Assembly: GCA_051874735.1 (NCBI GenBank)
Contig: JBJEGD010000015.1
Location: forward strand, 1-12,029
DNA: 12,029 nt
DNA from: Candidatus Bruticola sp.
Lineage (GTDB): Bacteria > Vulcanimicrobiota > Xenobia > Xenobiales > Xenobiaceae
Direction: 5' to 3'
Below the pieces are notes generated by a model, which was given only the letters and a program-made list of their open reading frames with translations, was not told the origin of the DNA and did not search any database. The first letter of the stretch is position 1; each line of letters starts with the position of its first letter. Both the position numbers and the translations under genes were made by a program. Shown piece after piece: positions 208-11,897 of the stretch.

Positions 208-1575
208 ATGCGCAGACTAACATTCTTAATTTTAATGTTGCTTTTCATCTGTTCGGCTGCACCTCTGGCTTCGCGTGCCAATACGGAGTCGGCAGCGTCT
301 TTAAATTATCATCCTTACAACGAGTTAGGAATAAAAGTTATGACTCGCGGCAATGCTTTCAACGTAGCTGAGCTGCTGGCCGATCCTTCAGTCCGTATCT
401 TTATACTTCAGGTACCTTTTGAACAGTTCGATCTCTCTTGTTGTCCTGATATTATCAATTGGGTGCGTCAGGGCCATTCTTTATGGTTTTACGATTCGCG
501 CTATGCGCCCTATTTCGGTATGAAGGCTTACGCTCTTTCCGGCCAGCAGTTTAAAGGGCGCGATGAATCTGGAGAGTTGGGTGAGCATAAATACAGCGGA
601 CGAGCTGCCGGCGTGCTTTGCTTGAGCAAGCAAAATGTAATGTCTGGCGTTGGTCAATGCACTGTCTTCCTTCCTTTAGTCGGTCAAGATAATTACAGTG
701 CCGTAGCTTTGGGAGGTGATACTCTGCCTTTACTCCAGTTCGCTTCCGATTCTCCAGCTTTGGCTGCTATGCGCCGTGATGGAAAAGGATTAGTGGTCTT
801 TAAGCCGCTGTTGTGGCCCGAATCTCTGTCTGGTAAACGTTTCCAGTATAATTTATTGGAGTACTCAGCCGGCTTTGGTGTGCCCGGCATAGGTGGCGAA
901 GGACGTATCGGCGAGTTTATCGGTCCTGAAGCCGATTATATTCAGACTAATTTTAAAGCAGAAGCCATGATTAAAGCCCCTCAAGAGAATATCACTGAAG
1001 CGGGCGGAGGGTACGTATACGCTAAGTCCGTCAAAGATAATCAGGTTTCGGCTGAGGCTGTAGCTGCGTCTCAGGTTGAAAAAAATAAGTCAGGTGCTAC
1101 AGATAGGCATAATACTTCCAGTGAGGGGCGTTGGTCCGATAAATTCTCAGAAGGAAGCCGCTTAAATGATGAGGCTGATACTAAATTAGAATCTAAAATT
1201 CTCACCGAATCAGCTCAAGCTGAGCCTGTGCCCTCAGTAGATACTCCCAATCTTGAAATGGCGGAAGGGAGCAATTTCGATATCGTAGTTTTGCGCGGTG
1301 GCGATACCTTTATCGGACGCTGCCATAACCGCGAAATTATGTTGGAAACTACCTCTGAAAGTGTGAAAGCTGCGCCTGCCGATTTCAAGAGCATTCTTTT
1401 CAGTACTGACAGCTGGAGTCTCGATAAATGTGAAATGGAAGATGGCCGCCATTTATCTGGCTATATGCTTACTAACGAGTTCTATTTCTCTAATGAAGTT
1501 GGCGATCGTACTTTCAAAAAAGAAGCGATTAAGAATATCCGTTTCCGAGTTCCTGCCGAGCAGATTAAACACTAG
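208..1575 (+). CDS. Secreted hypothetical protein: signal peptide, putative class I glutamine amidotransferase-like domain, acidic linker and two C-terminal 42-aa repeats
   Basis: 455-aa ORF. MRRLTFLILMLLFICSAAPLASRA has a basic, hydrophobic, small-residue Sec-signal pattern. IINWVRQGHSLWF and RRDGKGLVVF...YNLLEY resemble GATase1-like (ThuA/DUF4350-type) folds; the domain call is inference. Confidence 0.75.
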   Translation: MRRLTFLILMLLFICSAAPLASRANTESAASLNYHPYNELGIKVMTRGNAFNVAELLADPSVRIFILQVPFEQFDLSCCPDIINWVRQGHSLWFYDSRYAPYFGMKAYALSGQQFKGRDESGELGEHKYSGRAAGVLCLSKQNVMSGVGQCTVFLPLVGQDNYSAVALGGDTLPLLQFASDSPALAAMRRDGKGLVVFKPLLWPESLSGKRFQYNLLEYSAGFGVPGIGGEGRIGEFIGPEADYIQTNFKAEAMIKAPQENITEAGGGYVYAKSVKDNQVSAEAVAASQVEKNKSGATDRHNTSSEGRWSDKFSEGSRLNDEADTKLESKILTESAQAEPVPSVDTPNLEMAEGSNFDIVVLRGGDTFIGRCHNREIMLETTSESVKAAPADFKSILFSTDSWSLDKCEMEDGRHLSGYMLTNEFYFSNEVGDRTFKKEAIKNIRFRVPAEQIKH

Positions 1576-1590
1576 TTTTGTTTACTCATT

Positions 1591-1619
1591 TTGTAGCGTT
1601 TCAGCAGTTAGTCTATAAC
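1591..1619 (+). promoter_or_regulatory. Possible sigma70-type promoter for hslU
   Basis: TTGTAG (1591-1596), 17 bp spacer, TATAAC (1614-1619), upstream of the AGGAG RBS at 1640-1644. The match is imperfect. Confidence 0.3.
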
Positions 1620-1652
1620 TGCAGATGCGTTATTTTTTTAGGAGTGCCAATT

Positions 1653-3647
1653 ATGAGTTCAGATGATCCGCAAAATTTTGATGAGTTGTTTCAACGTATA
1701 AAGCAAGAATTGCACGGTTTATATGATATGGGAGAAAATCCAGCCCAGGTACAGCAGCTCATGGTTGAGGCTGTGCAGGACATGCTTAAACAGTCCGCTG
1801 ATCAGAGTCAAAAATTCCAAGAAAATATAAAAGCCTGCCAGGAGGCTATTTCCTCAATTTCTCCCCACTTAGAGGCTGAAGGTAATACGAGCAGTAGTTC
1901 TGCTCCTCAATTTCTGTTCGGGGCTGATTTAGAGAAATTCCGTCAAGAAATGGAAAAGAAACAGAAAGAAGTTACTAAAGTCGGCGAGCAGACGGAGACA
2001 GCAGACCATTTAGACAAAATCGGTTTGTCCAAGTCAGCGGAGCCTAAAAAAGAAAGGGAAGAGGACGACCACAGCTCTACAAAAGCTGAATCTAAAGCCG
2101 ATGGTAGCATAGGTTTAACTGAAAAAGAGAAAAACGAACCTAAAGCGACAGAAACAGACGAAAGCAAGCCCGATTTCACTGCTTATCCTCTGGAAAATTT
2201 ATTCAGCGGTTGTCAAGGAGAAGATCATGACCGCGCTGACAAAATCAATCTCGACGATCAGCTTACGCCTCGTCAGGTGGTTGAAGCTCTCGATCGCTAC
2301 ATCGTGGGCCAAGAACAAGCTAAAAAAGCGGTAGCTATATCGCTGCGCAACCGCTATCGCCGGGAAAAACTGCAGAGCGAGCTGCGGGAAGAAATTATTC
2401 CCAAAAACATTTTAATGGTCGGTCCTACCGGAGTTGGTAAAACGGAAATAGCCCGCCGTTTGGCTAAATTGATGGGCGCTCCTTTCCTTAAAGTAGAAGC
2501 TACTAAATATACTGAAGTTGGCTATGTAGGCCGCGATGTCGAATCGATGATTCGAGATTTGGCCTTAGTAGGGATGCGCATGGTAGAGCGCGAGCGTCTC
2601 AGCAAAGTCAAACATGAAGCTAGAGAGGCCGCTTTGGCGCGTCTTTTAGATAGCCTGCAAGGACGAAAACCTAATATTAAGAATACCGGCAATCGCTCTA
2701 TATTTGAAGAAGTCTTCGGCCGCAAAGGAGATAACAAACAAAGTGTCAATCTCAATCCCGATTTAGCTTCTTTGAGCCGAGCTGAACTTTACGAACGTCT
2801 TTACAAAGGTCAATTAGACGATCGCTTAGTGGAAATTGAACTGGAAGGGGAATCTTCTCCGGAAGTTCAGGTTATAACTGGAGATAGCGAAGAATTAGGC
2901 GTCAATTTCCAAGATATATTAGGTCCAATGTTACCTAAGAAATACTCGCACCATAAGTTGCCCGTGCAGAGAGCTTTCCAAATGCTGGAAGCTGAAGAAG
3001 CTAAAAAGCTGGTCGATGGCGACGACATTAAACAGGCTGCAGTAGAACTCATTGAAAATCAGGCAATTATATTCCTAGATGAACTTGACAAGATTGCCGA
3101 TCGCGAAGGAAGTAAAAGCGGTCCTGACGTCTCCCGAGAAGGTGTGCAGCGTGATATTTTGCCCATAGTAGAAGGTTGTTCCGTAAATACGAAAATCGGA
3201 CCGATCCGCACCGATCATATACTTTTTATTGCCGCCGGTGCTTTCCATGAAACTAAGCCCTCCGATTTAATACCCGAGTTGCAGGGGCGCTTTCCTATTC
3301 GTGTGACTTTAGACAGTTTAAAAAAAGAAGATTTCAAGCGGATACTCACTGAACCTAAAAATTCTCTGACTCGTCAATATAAGGAGCTGCTGAGCACCGA
3401 AGGAGTAGACGTCGAATTCACCGATGAGGCCATCGATGAATTAGCTTCTATGGCTTGTCAAGTAAACGAGCAAAACGAAAATATTGGCGCTCGCCGTCTG
3501 CACACACTTTTAGAGAGAGTTTTAGAAAAAATTTCTTTTGAAGCTCCGGAAATGGAAAAAGGTCAGTTCGTTATCGACCGTGATTATGTGCTGGCCGAGT
3601 TGAATGACATCTGCCAGAGCCGCGATCTGTCGCGCTTTATTTTATAA
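1653..3647 (+). CDS. hslU: ATP-dependent protease ATPase subunit HslU (ClpY) with about 200 aa N-terminal extension
   Basis: LTPRQVVEALDRYIVGQ, Walker A GPTGVGKT, pore loop KVEATKYTEVGYVGRDVESMIRDL, Walker B IIFLDELDK, VSREGVQRDILP, ELQGRFPIRV, ENIGARRLHT and C-terminal DLSRFIL. The start is moved from TTG 1578 to ATG 1653, which has AGGAG 8 nt upstream (664 aa). Confidence 0.96.
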   Translation: MSSDDPQNFDELFQRIKQELHGLYDMGENPAQVQQLMVEAVQDMLKQSADQSQKFQENIKACQEAISSISPHLEAEGNTSSSSAPQFLFGADLEKFRQEMEKKQKEVTKVGEQTETADHLDKIGLSKSAEPKKEREEDDHSSTKAESKADGSIGLTEKEKNEPKATETDESKPDFTAYPLENLFSGCQGEDHDRADKINLDDQLTPRQVVEALDRYIVGQEQAKKAVAISLRNRYRREKLQSELREEIIPKNILMVGPTGVGKTEIARRLAKLMGAPFLKVEATKYTEVGYVGRDVESMIRDLALVGMRMVERERLSKVKHEAREAALARLLDSLQGRKPNIKNTGNRSIFEEVFGRKGDNKQSVNLNPDLASLSRAELYERLYKGQLDDRLVEIELEGESSPEVQVITGDSEELGVNFQDILGPMLPKKYSHHKLPVQRAFQMLEAEEAKKLVDGDDIKQAAVELIENQAIIFLDELDKIADREGSKSGPDVSREGVQRDILPIVEGCSVNTKIGPIRTDHILFIAAGAFHETKPSDLIPELQGRFPIRVTLDSLKKEDFKRILTEPKNSLTRQYKELLSTEGVDVEFTDEAIDELASMACQVNEQNENIGARRLHTLLERVLEKISFEAPEMEKGQFVIDRDYVLAELNDICQSRDLSRFIL

Positions 3648-3679
3648 GTTCTTTTCTTTAGCAAAGGTCTTTTTGTTTA

Positions 3680-3709
3680 TTGACTGCATACAGTCGCAAA
3701 TGATAGAAT
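3680..3709 (+). promoter_or_regulatory. Sigma70-type promoter of the rpsB-tsf operon with extended -10
   Basis: TTGACT (3680-3685), 18 bp spacer, TG at 3701-3702 and TAGAAT at 3704-3709. Confidence 0.7.
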
Positions 3710-3715
3710 ACCCTT

Positions 3716-3950
3716 GCAATTTTCAGCCTGCCGTTTTTTGCCTAAGCTGAGGCAGAGCTGAACTTATAAGTCGCAGCAGTTTGTTCTTTAGTGCTCTGGG
3801 TGCCCCCGTTCAGAAATATATCCTTTGCTATTTTGAGCGTAGGCGAACGAGGGTGAGAGCGCTTTTTGGAAACTGCGAGGTGGCGCGGCTGCTTTTTAAC
3901 TTAAATAAACTACATAATAAAGCCGCGTCGGTAAAACCCAGGAGGATAAA
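3716..3950 (+). promoter_or_regulatory. Structured rpsB 5' leader (S2 autoregulatory element-like)
   Basis: Nested stems GCAGTTT/AAACTGC, GTGCTCT/AGAGCGC and CCCCGTTC/GAACGAGGG. GGGTG at 3798-3802, GAGG at 3877-3880 and AACCC at 3935-3939 lie before the SD AGGAGG, the arrangement known from S2-binding leaders. Confidence 0.65.
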
Positions 3951-4850
3951 ATGGCATTAATCAGCATGAAGCAGCTCTTAGAAGCCGGTGTTCACTTCGG
4001 TCACCAGACCCGCCGCTGGAACCCCAAGATGGCGAAATTCATCTTCACCCAGCGCAACGGTATCTATATTATCGACTTGCAGAAGACCGTAGCTAAACTT
4101 AAAGAGGCTTATGCTTTCTTGAAAGCCGTTGTCAAGGGGCAGTACGATTACGAGAACCGCCGTATCACCGAAGTTCCTATGTTTGACCCCCGCCCTGTTC
4201 TGTTTGTAGGAACCAAAAAACAGGCTCAGGATACTATCGCTGAAGACGCCGTGCGCTGCAACGAGTTCTTCGTAACTCAGCGTTGGCTGGGCGGCATGCT
4301 CACTAACTGGAAGACCATCCAGACCCGTATTGCTCGTCTGCGCGAATTGGAAAATATGCGTGAAGATGGCACCTACGACAGCCTCACCAAAAAAGAAGTT
4401 CTTCGCTTAGAAGATGAGCGCAAAAAGCTCGAGAAGTTCTTGGGCGGCATCAAGAACATGAAGAGCCTGCCCGGTGCTCTGTTTGTAGTCGATCCTCGCA
4501 AAGAGTATATCGCCGTCAACGAAGCCCGCAAGTTGGGTATCCCTGTTGTAGCTATTGTCGATACTAACTGCGATCCCGATGTAATCGACTATCCTATTCC
4601 CGGCAACGATGACGCTATCCGCGCTGTCCGTCTGCTTACCGGCAAGATCGCTGACGCCGTTATCGAAGGCAAGTCTGAGATGGAAGTAGTTATCGAGGAA
4701 GCCTCTGTTGAGTCTGCCGAAATCAGCGATGAAGCTGCCGAAGAGACCGTCGAAAATGCCGAAGCTATTACTAAGGAAGTAGCTAAGAGCTTCACTGAAG
4801 AGAAGAACGACAACGACATCCCCGGCGGCGTATGGCGCGCTGAAGACTAA
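3951..4850 (+). CDS. rpsB: 30S ribosomal protein S2 (uS2)
   Basis: [42 protein letters not shown] and DTNCDPD...[11 protein letters not shown]; SD AGGAGG at 3940-3945. Confidence 0.99.
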
Positions 4851-6988: not shown

Positions 6989-7321
6989 ATGGGGTCTGTT
7001 AATCCTGATTGTCCCGGCTGCTGGCTGGGACAGGATTATGGCGAGGCGTTAGCTCAAGCTGTAAAGTTGGGGCTAGCTCCCCGCCATGTTGTTGTCACTC
7101 GTCCGCCCTTTAAGGGGCTGGCTCAGGGGCGTTTGCGCCTGTTAGCCGTGCGTCCTTATCCGTCGTTGGCTGCCGATTCTTTCTCCGATGAAAGCTTTTG
7201 GCAAAACTTAAATAGCGAGGCCAATCCTGCTTATTCTGAAAGTTGGAGCGGAGATTGGGAATGGATTTTAGCTTATCCTGTCTTCGAAAGAGCGCCCAGG
7301 GAGCAACGTAAGAAAAATTGA
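6989..7321 (+). CDS. Small hypothetical protein, possibly PASTA-like, between frr and uppS
   Basis: 110-aa ORF that fills the gap exactly: it starts 5 nt after the frr stop and its TGA overlaps the uppS TTG (TTGA 7318-7321). Confidence 0.65.
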   Translation: MGSVNPDCPGCWLGQDYGEALAQAVKLGLAPRHVVVTRPPFKGLAQGRLRLLAVRPYPSLAADSFSDESFWQNLNSEANPAYSESWSGDWEWILAYPVFERAPREQRKKN

Positions 7322-8288: not shown

Positions 8289-9605
8289 GTGGAAAGTTAT
8301 ATTTATATGTTTGTTGGCATCTTAATAATTTTAGTCTTTTTTATATTCGCCGCTTTAATGATGAGCCGCAAAGTTCCCGCTTTGTTGGCTCTTCCCGCTA
8401 TGGCTGTAATAGTCGGCCTAATTTCCGGTTCAGTTTATCACTGGCCCGAGGGCAAGATCGGTTTAATTAATTTTATTGGCGATACTATTATTACCCAGGG
8501 AGCGGTGAAATTAGCTCAGGCTATTATGTTTACCGCTTTTGGTTCTATTCTTTCGCAAGTAGTTATGCGCAGTGGTATCGCCGCCCATTTAATTAGCTTG
8601 GCCGCCGAATATGCCGGCAAGCATAAAAGTTGGTTAGCCGCTGCTTTAACTTTGGCCACCGCCGTTTGTTTTACTTCCGTAACTGGCCTGGGGGCGGTGA
8701 TTATGATCGGGTCGCTAGTGTTGCCGATTTTAATAGGCGTTGGCCTATCTGCTGAGCTGGCTGCCGGTCTCATGCTCTTTTCCGTGGCCTTGGGCGGCAT
8801 TTTTAATCCGGCCAATTTGGGTTTTTATCTCGATGTGTTGCAGCTTTCCCAAGAAGTAGTGCAGCGGTATGCTCTAGTTTACGGAGGACTCTTCGCTTTG
8901 ACTACTGCCGTATTTTTGGCAGTGGGACTGCACCGGGAACGGGGCAGCTTTAACTGGGCCGAAGAAGTAGAGCTACCGAAAAATAAGGTTCCAGCTATCG
9001 CTCTGCTTACTCCTGTGTTGCCTATTGTGCTGATCTTCTGTTTGCATGTGCCCATTATTCCAGCTTTTATTGTCGGTATACTTTGGGGAGTGGTAACCGT
9101 AGAACCGCGCCGATGTATCAACAATTTAAGTGCCGCCGTCCTGGAAGGTTTAAAAGATATAGCTCCAGTTTTAGGTCTTTTTATCGGCTTAGGCATGTGT
9201 CTGAACGCTATGATGTCTGAGCCAGCTAAATTAGTTATGGCTCCCATTTTAGAGGCCGTCATTCCGCGCCAGCCCGTCTCTTTTGTGCTTACTTTCTTTA
9301 TTTTGGCTCCTTTAGCTCTTTACCGTGGCCCTTTAAATATGTACGGTTTGGGGGCGGGTATTGCCAGTGTGCTGCTCGGCAGTAAGTTGATGGCTCCAAC
9401 AGCTGTTTTAGCGGCGTTTTTCAGTGTCGGTCAAATTCAGGGTGTTTGCGATCCTACTAATACTCATAACGTATGGTTGGCCCAATTTACTAAAACAGGT
9501 GCGGAAAAGTTATTGAAAAATACGTTGCCTTATGTTTGGGTATTTGTTGGCTTAGCTTTGAGCTGGGCCGCTTTCGGAGCTGGGGCTCTTAATGGGACTC
9601 CTTAG
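8289..9605 (+). CDS. Multi-pass membrane transporter, ion transporter (IT) superfamily-like (CitMHS/GntP/DcuC-type); substrate unknown
   Basis: 438 aa with roughly 11-13 hydrophobic segments. FGSILSQVVMRSGIAAHLI and GAVIMIGSLVLPIL are typical IT-family patterns; GVCDPTNTHNVW near the C-terminus. The start is uncertain: GTG 8289 or ATG 8307. Confidence 0.8.
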   Translation: MESYIYMFVGILIILVFFIFAALMMSRKVPALLALPAMAVIVGLISGSVYHWPEGKIGLINFIGDTIITQGAVKLAQAIMFTAFGSILSQVVMRSGIAAHLISLAAEYAGKHKSWLAAALTLATAVCFTSVTGLGAVIMIGSLVLPILIGVGLSAELAAGLMLFSVALGGIFNPANLGFYLDVLQLSQEVVQRYALVYGGLFALTTAVFLAVGLHRERGSFNWAEEVELPKNKVPAIALLTPVLPIVLIFCLHVPIIPAFIVGILWGVVTVEPRRCINNLSAAVLEGLKDIAPVLGLFIGLGMCLNAMMSEPAKLVMAPILEAVIPRQPVSFVLTFFILAPLALYRGPLNMYGLGAGIASVLLGSKLMAPTAVLAAFFSVGQIQGVCDPTNTHNVWLAQFTKTGAEKLLKNTLPYVWVFVGLALSWAAFGAGALNGTP

Positions 9606-9710
9606 TTTTTTGGGTGGGGGCCGTCAGTATAAAAAAGATGCGCCTCTATTGAGGGGCTGCGATGGCAGTTAGTTTATATTTTTTTGATTCAATTTTAAGA
9701 GGTAAGCAAA

Positions 9711-11897
9711 TTGAGCAAATTTCGTGTTGGTATCGATGTCGGCGGTACTTTTACTCATGCAGTGGCGGTAGATAATGATACGCTGCAAGTGACAGCTCAC
9801 TGTGTCGCTCCCACTACTCACCAGCATGAGCAGGGGGTTGCTGCTGGAATTATTGATTCCTTCCGAGGCTTGTGTGATCAGTTGCCTCAAAATGCAGAAA
9901 TAGTTTTTTTAGCCCACAGCACTACCCAGGCCACTAATGCCTTATTGGAAGGCGACGTCTCCAAAGTAGGTATAATCGCTTTGGGTGGCGGCTTAGAAGG
10001 GGTAAAAGTTAAAAGTGATACTAACATTGGCAGCATAGAGTTAGCTCCCGGAAAGTTTCTGCATACTGGAACGGCGGTGCTCAATCCTAAGGAAACGGAC
10101 TTCGAGCAGCGCTTGGCTGAGCAGCTGCGCTCATTTAAGAGCGACGGAGTGGGAGCTCTGGTAGCAGCTGAAGGTTTTTCTGTCGATGATCCGCAGGGCG
10201 AATTAAAAGTGCTGTCAGCTTGTGCTGAAATTGAAATACCGGCTTGCGCTACCCACCAAATGTCGGGACTGTACGGTTTGAGTGCCCGCACTCAGACGGC
10301 TGTTTTCAACGCCAGTATACTGCCTAAAATGATCTCAACCGCTCTCATGACTAAGGGGGCTTTGGAAAGTCAGCAGGTCAAAGCTCCCTTGATGGTAATG
10401 CGGTCAGACGGCGGAGTTATGGACATCGATGAAGTGCAGCGCCGCCCTGTTTTGACGCTTTTATCTGGTCCAGCAGCCGGTATTGCCGCCTGCCTGATGT
10501 TTCTGAAAGCTTCCGATGCTCTATTTTTAGAGGTAGGCGGCACCAGTACTGATATTTGCATGATTAAAGACGGTCGGGCGGCGCTTAAGTCCGCTTCAAT
10601 AGGCGGGCGCGATACGTATTTGCGCACTTTAGACAGTCGCACTTTAGGTGTAGCTGGAGGCTCCATGATCGGTTGGCGCAACGGACTGCAGATTGGACCG
10701 CGCAGCGCCCATTTAGCTGGCTACACTTACTGCTCTTTTGCTCCTGTCGGGGAAACAGCAAGTCTGCAAGCTAGCGATCTAAAAATAAAGGAAGTTACTC
10801 CGTTAGCCGGTGATCAAGTCTACTTCATAGTGCAGACGCCGACGGGTCGAGAGTACGCGCTTACTTCTACCTGCGCGGCTAATATGCTCGGCTTCATCCC
10901 CGAGGGGAGTTATTCTTTTGGTAATGTACAATTTGTTACGGCAGCTTTTGAGGCTTTAGCTGCTTATCTCGAATTAAAAGGAGAGCGCCCGTCGTCGGAA
11001 GCATCTAATAAGGCCAGAGCGTGGGCTGAATCTGCTCTCAATAAAGCTGCTGATATTATTATTCCCACCCTTAAAAAGCTCATCAGCGATTACAAAATGG
11101 AAAATCGACGTTTAAAACTGATCGGCGGTGGGGGTGGATGCGCGGCGATAGTGCCTTTTACAGCTAAGCGTTTAGGTTTACCTTTTGAATTGGCTAAGCA
11201 GGCTGAGGTGATTTCGGCTATAGGAGCCGCTTTAGCTATGGTTCGCGAGTGTATAGAGCGCACCATTGTAGATCCTACGCCAGACGACTTGCAAAAATTG
11301 CGCCGCCAAGCTGAACAGGCGGTTATTAAAATGGGAGCTGAAGCTGACAGCGTAGAGGTTACCGTTGAAATAGACGCTCAGAAAAATTTGGTGCGGGCTG
11401 TGGCTCAGGGAGCTATAGCTTTCTCTAATAAGAGTTCCCTGCGGGCGGAACAGATCAGTGAAGAGGAGCGGTTAGCTGTACTGAAAACTTCGGGAGTGCC
11501 AGACAGTATTTATAAATTATTAGGCAGCACGGGTTTCAGTTACGTTTACCGCAGCGAGCGGGAACGGCGGGTCTTTTTCGGTTTATTTAAGAAAAAAGAA
11601 AGCATTATTTGGGTTACTGATGCTTTCGGCAGTGCTCGTCTGCAGCGTCCTGGTGCTGTAGTTAAAGAAGGACAAGTAGGTCAGCTGCGCTCTTTTATTG
11701 ATAGCATAATAAAAGAATATACTTCCTATGGCGATGCTGGCGCGCTGTTGCCGGCAGTTCATTTAGTTGCAGGTCACAAATTGTGCAATTTAAGTACTTT
11801 AATAAAGGCTGAACAGATGATTGAGTTGGCTTTAAGTGAGTTAGGCACTCTCTCAGCTGAGGAAAAAGTTTTTGCCATCATTGAACCTGGTGTTTAA
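9711..11897 (+). CDS. Hydantoinase A / 5-oxoprolinase family protein (ASKHA/actin-like ATPase)
   Basis: RVGIDVGGTFT, HSTTQATNALLEG, MRSDGG, TLLSGPAAG, EVGGTSTDI, TLGVAGGS, IGPRSA and VISAIGAALA; TTG start with AGAGGT SD at 9698-9703. Confidence 0.9.
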   Translation: MSKFRVGIDVGGTFTHAVAVDNDTLQVTAHCVAPTTHQHEQGVAAGIIDSFRGLCDQLPQNAEIVFLAHSTTQATNALLEGDVSKVGIIALGGGLEGVKVKSDTNIGSIELAPGKFLHTGTAVLNPKETDFEQRLAEQLRSFKSDGVGALVAAEGFSVDDPQGELKVLSACAEIEIPACATHQMSGLYGLSARTQTAVFNASILPKMISTALMTKGALESQQVKAPLMVMRSDGGVMDIDEVQRRPVLTLLSGPAAGIAACLMFLKASDALFLEVGGTSTDICMIKDGRAALKSASIGGRDTYLRTLDSRTLGVAGGSMIGWRNGLQIGPRSAHLAGYTYCSFAPVGETASLQASDLKIKEVTPLAGDQVYFIVQTPTGREYALTSTCAANMLGFIPEGSYSFGNVQFVTAAFEALAAYLELKGERPSSEASNKARAWAESALNKAADIIIPTLKKLISDYKMENRRLKLIGGGGGCAAIVPFTAKRLGLPFELAKQAEVISAIGAALAMVRECIERTIVDPTPDDLQKLRRQAEQAVIKMGAEADSVEVTVEIDAQKNLVRAVAQGAIAFSNKSSLRAEQISEEERLAVLKTSGVPDSIYKLLGSTGFSYVYRSERERRVFFGLFKKKESIIWVTDAFGSARLQRPGAVVKEGQVGQLRSFIDSIIKEYTSYGDAGALLPAVHLVAGHKLCNLSTLIKAEQMIELALSELGTLSAEEKVFAIIEPGV

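Follow-up and report, generated by a model that had tools for sequence, protein, structure and literature searches.

An HslU with a long acidic, motif-bearing N-terminal arm in a small clade of uncultured bacteria

Introduction

HslU is the textbook Clp-type unfoldase that lacks an N-terminal accessory domain, and the accessible part of one review table places a dash beside HslU where other proteases have partner entries. The window analyzed here, a stretch of 12,029 nt from Candidatus Bruticola sp. (contig JBJEGD010000015.1), encodes an HslU that starts some 200 residues ahead of the canonical start, and this raises the question of whether such an extension is genuine, how it came about, and what it may do. 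No description of an N-terminal arm on a bacterial HslU, or of these particular proteins, was found in the literature searched, which covered few subscription journals. As judged from the sequences, the arm-bearing HslU is a variant of HslU confined to a small uncultured clade.

The hslU Reading Frame and Its Canonical Core

An earlier note on this DNA had claimed an in-frame N-terminal extension of about 200 residues, and the frame is indeed open: translation of 1653-3644 yields 664 aa (74.9 kDa) without an internal stop, of which the core (203-664) accounts for a calculated 52.3 kDa.

1653..3647, + strand: hslU open reading frame, 664 aa including the 202-aa N-terminal arm; full-length in 12/12 genomes of the clade
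1640..1644, + strand: Shine-Dalgarno sequence AGGAG, 8 nt before ATG 1653
1653..2258, + strand: N-terminal arm, residues 1-202; net charge -21, pI 4.6; predicted to be largely disordered
2259..3644, + strand: canonical HslU core, residues 203-664; dN/dS 0.04

The note had also proposed that ATG 1653 carries a good Shine-Dalgarno sequence and that no in-frame Met lies close to the canonical start, and both statements held. Upstream of the core, Met is present at residues 1, 26, 37, 44, and 100 only, the canonical start position itself is a Leu (CTT), and the GTG at V209 is devoid of a Shine-Dalgarno sequence. The same start is preceded by AGGA(G) in 10 of the 12 arm-bearing genomes and by GAGG or AAGG in the other two, and a scan within 1450-4000 gave no promoter-like site upstream of 1653.

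The canonical protein begins at residue 203, as had been suggested: NCBIfam TIGR00390 (hslU) matches residues 204-664 with 595.6 bits (cut-off 362.45) and is covered over model positions 1-441, and the alignment with E. coli HslU starts at residue 3 of the latter, opposite residue 203 of the window protein, and extends to the C-terminus. Walker A (GPTGVGKT, residues 257-264), the GYVG pore motif (290-293), and Walker B (D476/E477) are in place, the I-domain insertion can be aligned to that of E. coli, and the C-terminal tail DLSRFIL, of the HslV-activating type, is identical to the E. coli one. The catalytic and HslV-docking motifs of the arm-bearing HslU are all intact, and by every sequence test the window protein is a bona fide HslU. 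Compared with bacterial HslU/ClpY of known structure (E. coli 1g4a and 6pxk; S. aureus 6kww), the core is alike throughout, and the differences lie in the 202 extra N-terminal residues, a basic I-domain loop 1 lacking its usual motif, and an hslV that is not adjacent.

The genome holds one copy of hslU, and its hslV, of normal length, is located on another contig (G000:C1:1840-2352; TIGR03692, 278.7 bits). hslV was found in all 12 arm-bearing genomes (partial in G012), and HslV in the clade has neither an extension nor an insertion. The gene (L031:1492-2019) is solitary and unlinked from hslU in the window genome and throughout the order. We considered the separation of hslV from hslU as the cause of the arm and rejected it, since the separation is order-wide and older than the arm. 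A read-through fusion of HslV to HslU was also discarded, there being no HslV (PF00227) match in residues 1-202.

Organellar targeting peptides are basic and cleaved. Organellar HslU has its core preceded by a long N-terminal extension, as in a mitochondrial presequence, according to the portion of the source available (PMC2674469). A targeting presequence was rejected for the present arm, which has a net charge of -21 to -30 across the clade and is encoded in a bacterial chromosome beside rpsB-tsf-pyrH-frr.

Composition and Predicted Structure of the Arm

The arms are rich in D and E, and the window arm has only two cysteines (62 and 187). AlphaFold2 on the isolated arm (pTM 0.23) predicted helices at residues 7-25, 30-69, and 90-112, no strands, and disorder over 112-169. 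Together with two conserved motifs, this gives the following putative elements.

1671..1727, + strand: H1, predicted amphipathic helix, residues 7-25; pattern D/N-hydrophobic-x-E/D-hydrophobic-hydrophobic
1740..1859, + strand: H2, predicted helix, residues 30-69; neither its sequence nor its length is constant
1905..1931, + strand: M1, residues 85-93, motif P-[QS]-F-[ILM]-F-G-x-[DE]-L; a predicted helix runs on from it to 112
1986..2159, + strand: acidic disordered linker, residues 112-169; variable in length, pLDDT <50
2169..2207, + strand: M2, motif PDF..YPLE.LF, residues 173-185

H1 has the highest hydrophobic moment in the arm and is, with M1 and M2, one of three conserved islands; its pattern is visible in 12/12 aligned arms as well as in the divergent protein P0139. 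Residues F87, F89, G90, and L93 of M1 are invariant in the 12 arms, giving them a common shape of F-x-F-G-x-x-L, and the motif occurs once among the 21,390 open frames of the window genome; neither M1 nor M2 was found elsewhere in that genome. M2 takes the form YP[LP][DE].LF in 9 of the 12 aligned arms, all of genus g1, and the linker in G006 is about 40 residues shorter.

The flexible tether of the earlier note is thereby borne out by the prediction over residues 112-169. The single helical or coiled-coil-like segment that it described is replaced by three separate predicted helices, and its built-in domain gives way to a different picture: by these models the arm consists of short motifs, M1 and M2 among them, which the note had missed, in a disordered acidic chain, and is not a compact domain. 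Family searches returned no Pfam family (best E 0.066) and no NCBIfam family (best E 0.014) for residues 1-202. PDB sequences matched by the arm were designed helical proteins only, at E 0.18 or worse, Foldseek gave no structural relative, and the ESM Atlas, entered via the homologue P0008, gave no feature match (TM <0.3). As far as the Pfam, NCBIfam, PDB, Foldseek, and ESM Atlas searches reach, the arm belongs to no known family.

Distribution, Origin, and Selection

Related genomes share the extended HslU, which the note had proposed to check: the long form is present in 12 of 41 related genomes, comprising the sister genera g1 (10/10) and g4 (2/2), with arms of 146-228 aa. Among the others, 21 have 6-25 extra residues, a figure that depends on the start codon chosen in the analysis, one was unparsed, and seven gave no HslU-level match. 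A profile of the arm matched in 12 of 301 genomes of the phylum, these being the 12 used to build it, and had no match in the other 289. A tree of the core only groups the 12 arm-bearing HslUs as a single clade (100/99), to which g2 is sister (98/94), the branches being long; this agrees with one gain of the arm.

The arms of the two genera are only 16-46% identical to the window arm, and the closest named homologue (P0003, an HslU of Candidatus Bruticola sp.) is 74% identical. Within the arm region the HslU frame has no stop in 12/12 genomes, and each other frame has 1-37. When three close pairs were pooled, dN/dS was 0.32 for the arm, 0.08 for the M1 region (83-100), 0.29 for M2, and 0.40 for the arm linkers, against 0.04 for the HslU core, indicating on sequence grounds that the arm is under purifying selection. 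A divergent HslU of the clade known from assemblies (P0046/P0139) has an arm of about 313 aa, with a net charge of -56 across 300 aa, which retains an H1-like start; M1 is not recognizable in it and is therefore not universal.

It is hardly credible that hslU was joined to an upstream ORF by an indel or that the true start lies at the core. What could be said for such an artifact is that no sequencing run covers the arm of the window genome (in one DNA run, 0.06 of the words were present, and its contigs reached only into parts of the core and did not touch 1500-2387; no RNA run was listed) and that P0001 has been recorded from a single contig. Conservation largely refutes it, as the full-length form occurs not only in the twelve genomes but also in protein databases from many independently assembled contigs, including a 643-aa member on 120 contigs and a 75-member cluster. 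The note had named as a refuting case close relatives with a normal HslU and a separate upstream ORF, and none was found. Across the order, hslU is immediately preceded by a homologue of the ORF at 208-1575 in the window, which in some genomes overlaps the hslU start, and the gap between the two genes is 10-95 nt in arm-bearing relatives and -11 to 99 nt in arm-less ones. Because the same gene adjoins hslU with and without the arm, no separate ORF was absorbed. That window ORF encodes 455 aa with a signal-peptide-like start and has no Pfam or NCBIfam match. No stand-alone homologue of the arm was found among 1.84 billion representatives in a search that also missed the other members of the clade, so that this negative carries little weight. 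Its sole non-self match, P0007, joins residues 1-109 of the G002 arm to an unrelated tail on a single contig of 1.2 kb and was discounted as probably chimeric; we take this tail to resemble the end of a cobalamin-binding domain.

To what extent other HslUs are extended was addressed with HslU-like proteins of at least 579 aa. Among the best 120 of 376, a script assigned 21 to this clade (with M1), 30 to HslV-HslU fusions, 12 to a group of other long N-termini, and 55 to other causes, with 2 unparsed; the 12 include P0046, frame artifacts, and two acidic/proline-rich tails of another lineage. Long disordered N-terminal tails on HslU thus seem to have arisen more than once, and among these best 120 of 376 a selected arm with several motifs appears in this clade only. 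Of the claim of a distinct HslU class, the clade-wide arm form stands (12/12, g1 and g4), but a long disordered N-terminal tail as such does not set these proteins apart from other HslUs.

Changes in the I-domain and Elsewhere in the Core

Two segments of the I-domain are of concern here.

2658..2774, + strand: I-domain loop 1, residues 336-374; NP[FL]xxLFG absent; net charge +3
2859..2930, + strand: segment equivalent to the autoinhibitory plug, E. coli 183-206; hydrophobic and acidic positions kept

In E. coli, I-domain loops 130-159 and 175-209 have roles in substrate delivery, according to the accessible text of PMC10743992, and the I-domain plug gates HslU, with the plug residues described in the part available of PMC7849044. 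Scored as [NS]P[FLW]x{1,2}[FLIM][FL], a motif in loop 1 was present in 0/12 arm-bearing HslUs and 0/2 of the sister genus g2, compared with 16/16 other members of the order and 54 of the 67 HslUs that could be parsed among 76 loci outside the phylum. Since the arm-less g2 is also without the motif, its loss did not require the arm. In the form NP[FL][EQ]xLFG it is conserved within an otherwise variable loop 1 in 70/83 HslUs outside g1, g2, and g4 (L012-L028, L060-L135). No functional study of the motif came to light in the literature searched, as far as the texts were accessible, and the loss of a motif so widely conserved and apparently unstudied makes it testable. Loop 1 has a net positive charge in 11/12 arm-bearing HslUs, in 0/16 other order members, and in 0/2 g2, and the HslU of G010 (g2) has an enlarged acidic loop 1.

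M2 and M1 bear some resemblance to this motif. They are the two best-scoring segments of the window arm when it is scanned with loop-1 profiles, M2 being the best, and are likewise the top two in 8/12 arms by all three profiles and in 9/12 by two. Against random 200-aa segments of the proteome, the pooled profile gave P 0.002 for the window arm, 0.01-0.06 for eight other g1 arms, and 0.2-0.8 for three basal arms, and a Xenobia-only profile was weaker (P 0.005-0.16 in nine g1 arms). The resemblance was noticed post hoc and reflects one evolutionary event, and we regard it as weak, a lead and not a result.

Plug positions E413/E414, L415, F419, I422, and L423 align to E. coli E193/E194, M195, L199, M202, and F203, while the PPG turn of the E. 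coli plug is not kept. Eighteen core positions are typical of the clade, several of them basic-to-hydrophobic, and the clade-specific changes include R442F, R466L, R469N, R434H, E212A, and H515I.

An Acidic Arm on Lon and Other Tails in the Clade

Lon of the window genome (L171:150-2993; G000:C5:50949-53792, minus strand) is a protein of 948 aa whose N-terminus likewise forms an acidic arm, here about 175 aa long. Such an arm is present in 11/11 genomes of the clade in which the 5′ end of the gene is intact (it is truncated in G009), measuring about 135-220 aa, or about 80 in G012. Its core motif FVFVDSDAPEEP..LERLTE, also given as FVFVDSDAPE plus a helix, is under very strong selection (dN/dS 0.01, two pairs) and restricted to the clade that has the HslU arm. 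The Lon N-terminus comprises about 35 mostly basic residues in g5 and is, by inspection, short in four outgroups; genus g2 had no Lon match (0/2; G010 and G014, 95% and 71% complete), and a profile of the Lon arm found no matching tail in the other genomes of the order searched. Homology between the two arms was rejected (HHalign probability 0.1%), a three-residue pattern being all that they have in common.

How often such tails are gained was estimated from reciprocal best pairs between the window genome and 1.0 of about 3.5 Mb of the sister genome G010. An N-terminal overhang at least 80 aa longer in the window genome occurred in 6/301 pairs, only one of which (a helicase) had an acidic low-complexity tail, and a looser count over 360 pairs gave two gains in the window genome and four in G010. 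As Lon is one of about seven proteostasis genes inspected, the coincidence of arms on HslU and Lon is suggestive rather than proven. No long acidic N-terminal arm was seen on ClpX, ClpB, ClpC, FtsH, HslV, or canonical GrpE.

Other proteins of the window genome have long tails of their own. The helicase-like protein (by its Walker A context; G000:C10:35203-38232) has a 220-aa acidic, proline-rich N-terminal tail that is absent from the G010 orthologue, and a formyltransferase paralogue of 456 aa (L176; G000:C10:41557-42924) has a 140-aa acidic one, the open frames of this paralogue being 381-464 aa in g1 and g4 vs. 332-397 in g2 and g3. A third Clp ATPase (G000:C6:52267-55713, minus strand) bears a long C-terminal tail of tyrosine/glycine/proline repeats, with a run of N inside the gene. 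The second GrpE paralogue (L173; G000:C34:17955-19280), of 442 aa, has a long N-terminal part, which was rejected as a clade-specific gain, being long in all genera of the family. The idea that the arm compensates for a lost chaperone was likewise dropped, as neither ClpB-type nor Lon genes are missing; Hsp20 occurs in only some of the genomes (4/12 arm-bearing, 0/2 g2) and does not track the arm.

A Possible Role of the Arm

The reading that we prefer, with a probability of roughly 0.45 and hence tentative, is that the arm serves as a flexible tethered capture device that would bring substrates or a partner protein to HslUV. From known HslU biology, six arms per ring would surround an otherwise normal HslU-HslV machine. 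Through H1, M1, and M2 the arms might make avid contacts with hydrophobic patches of clients, the acidic linkers would hold the arms extended and may favor basic clients, and the arm may have assumed the job of the decayed loop-1 motif. Binding motifs usually take the form of short aromatic or amphipathic islands, strongly selected, within an acidic linker that evolves fast. The contrast of dN/dS between M1 and the linkers points to capture for this reason, and so does the intact state of the catalytic and HslV-docking motifs in a clade where every arm-bearing genome has hslV. The loss of the loop-1 motif in 12/12, together with the likeness of M1 and M2 to it, would fit a relocation of this motif into the arm. 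On the other hand, this likeness is weak, g2 has lost the loop-1 motif without having an arm, and M1 cannot be recognized in the divergent P0046/P0139.

Capture also draws on known systems. Residue 66 of ClpX aligns to window residue 205, so the arm occupies the place of the ClpX zinc-binding domain, which binds the adaptor SspB, as stated in the part of PMC8138137 available. Each sits on a tether in front of the first AAA+ helix of a single-ring unfoldase, and the two unfoldases belong to the same clade, but the arm is three times longer, acidic, and without a C4 zinc motif, family match, or compact fold. A precedent may be ClpL, whose lineage-specific, partly folded N-terminal region binds clients and aggregates through aromatic residues, several at once, according to the accessible portion of PMC11006417. 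As far as that text goes, the HslU arm resembles this region in its lineage specificity, partial folding, exposed aromatic residues, amphipathic helix (transient in ClpL), and hexameric AAA+ motor. The likeness has its limits, since ClpL is a two-ring disaggregase without a peptidase and its region is about 60 aa, N/Q-rich, and has a small α/β core (PMC11006417, same portion), while the HslU arm is D/E-rich, is predicted to form helices only, and has no sequence or fold match to it. Such a naturally occurring HslU, whose selected arm carries motifs where ClpX has its N-domain, would offer a direct deletion test of how HslUV can gain specificity or regulation.

Three other functional or neutral explanations have to be weighed against capture. 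The arm may instead be autoregulatory, its acidic chain and motifs folding back on the I-domain funnel or plug to gate the ATPase and substrate entry and to tune the heat-melted plug, which we hold to be unlikely. The positive loop 1 peculiar to arm-bearing HslUs, core changes of the clade that could form docking surfaces, the similarity of QFLFG in M1 to the plug helix end QDIFG of these HslUs, and the known gating by the plug would all suit such a fold-back. Yet the plug residues are retained, so that no replacement of the plug is needed, and the co-varying core changes all lie on one branch and are thus beyond statistical test. In a full-length model, itself poor (pTM 0.52; 19 sequences), pLDDT for residues 81-90 falls to 39 from 59 in the isolated arm, and only residues 171-180 rise, from 68 to 78. 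The M1-M2 segment of the G006 homologue, when predicted in complex with its own core, scored 0.22 (mark 0.32), which favors neither side.

More doubtful still, in our estimate, is docking of HslU and Lon by acidic F-x-F-plus-helix arms to a common scaffold, site, or condensate. The regular occurrence of the Lon arm, the conservation of its core motif, and the single comparable gain in 301 orthologue pairs speak for it; the lack of homology between the two arms, the absence of such arms from the other proteostasis proteins inspected, and the fact that no candidate scaffold was found speak against it. Equally doubtful is accretion with little function, in which a lineage prone to growing disordered tails would tolerate the arm, use it as a solubility or stability tag, or clip it off. 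The tails on the helicase, the formyltransferase paralogue, and the third Clp ATPase agree with this, as do unrelated acidic/proline-rich N-terminal tails that precede the core by 66-125 aa on the bacterial HslUs P0113, P0130, and P0135; these tails are disordered, of low hydrophobicity, proline/alanine-rich, and without M1 (the core tree places P0113 and P0135 outside this clade). Furthermore, a Met stands at the canonical start in 6/12 arm-bearing HslUs, so that a short form could be co-produced in those six. The window gene has a Leu there, however, and accretion would hardly predict an M1 that stays invariant across two genera with otherwise poorly conserved arms and at so low a dN/dS.

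Beyond capture by HslU, one may speculate that the ancestor of the clade rewired its ATP-dependent proteolysis, with independent motif-bearing disordered arms on HslU and Lon, that of HslU being a built-in adaptor in place of the lost loop-1 motif, and both bringing the proteases to a common partner or compartment; we consider this improbable as a whole. If true, the hub of HslU and Lon would have no described counterpart in the literature searched, within the texts accessible. The parallel Lon arm points to a clade-level change in proteolysis that is approachable with purified proteins even though the organism is uncultured.

Further along the window, a 110-aa ORF without a family match (6989-7321) lies between frr and a uppS-like gene, and at 8289-11897 a membrane protein of 438 aa, for which no family match was significant, is followed by a 728-aa protein of the hydantoinase/oxoprolinase family.
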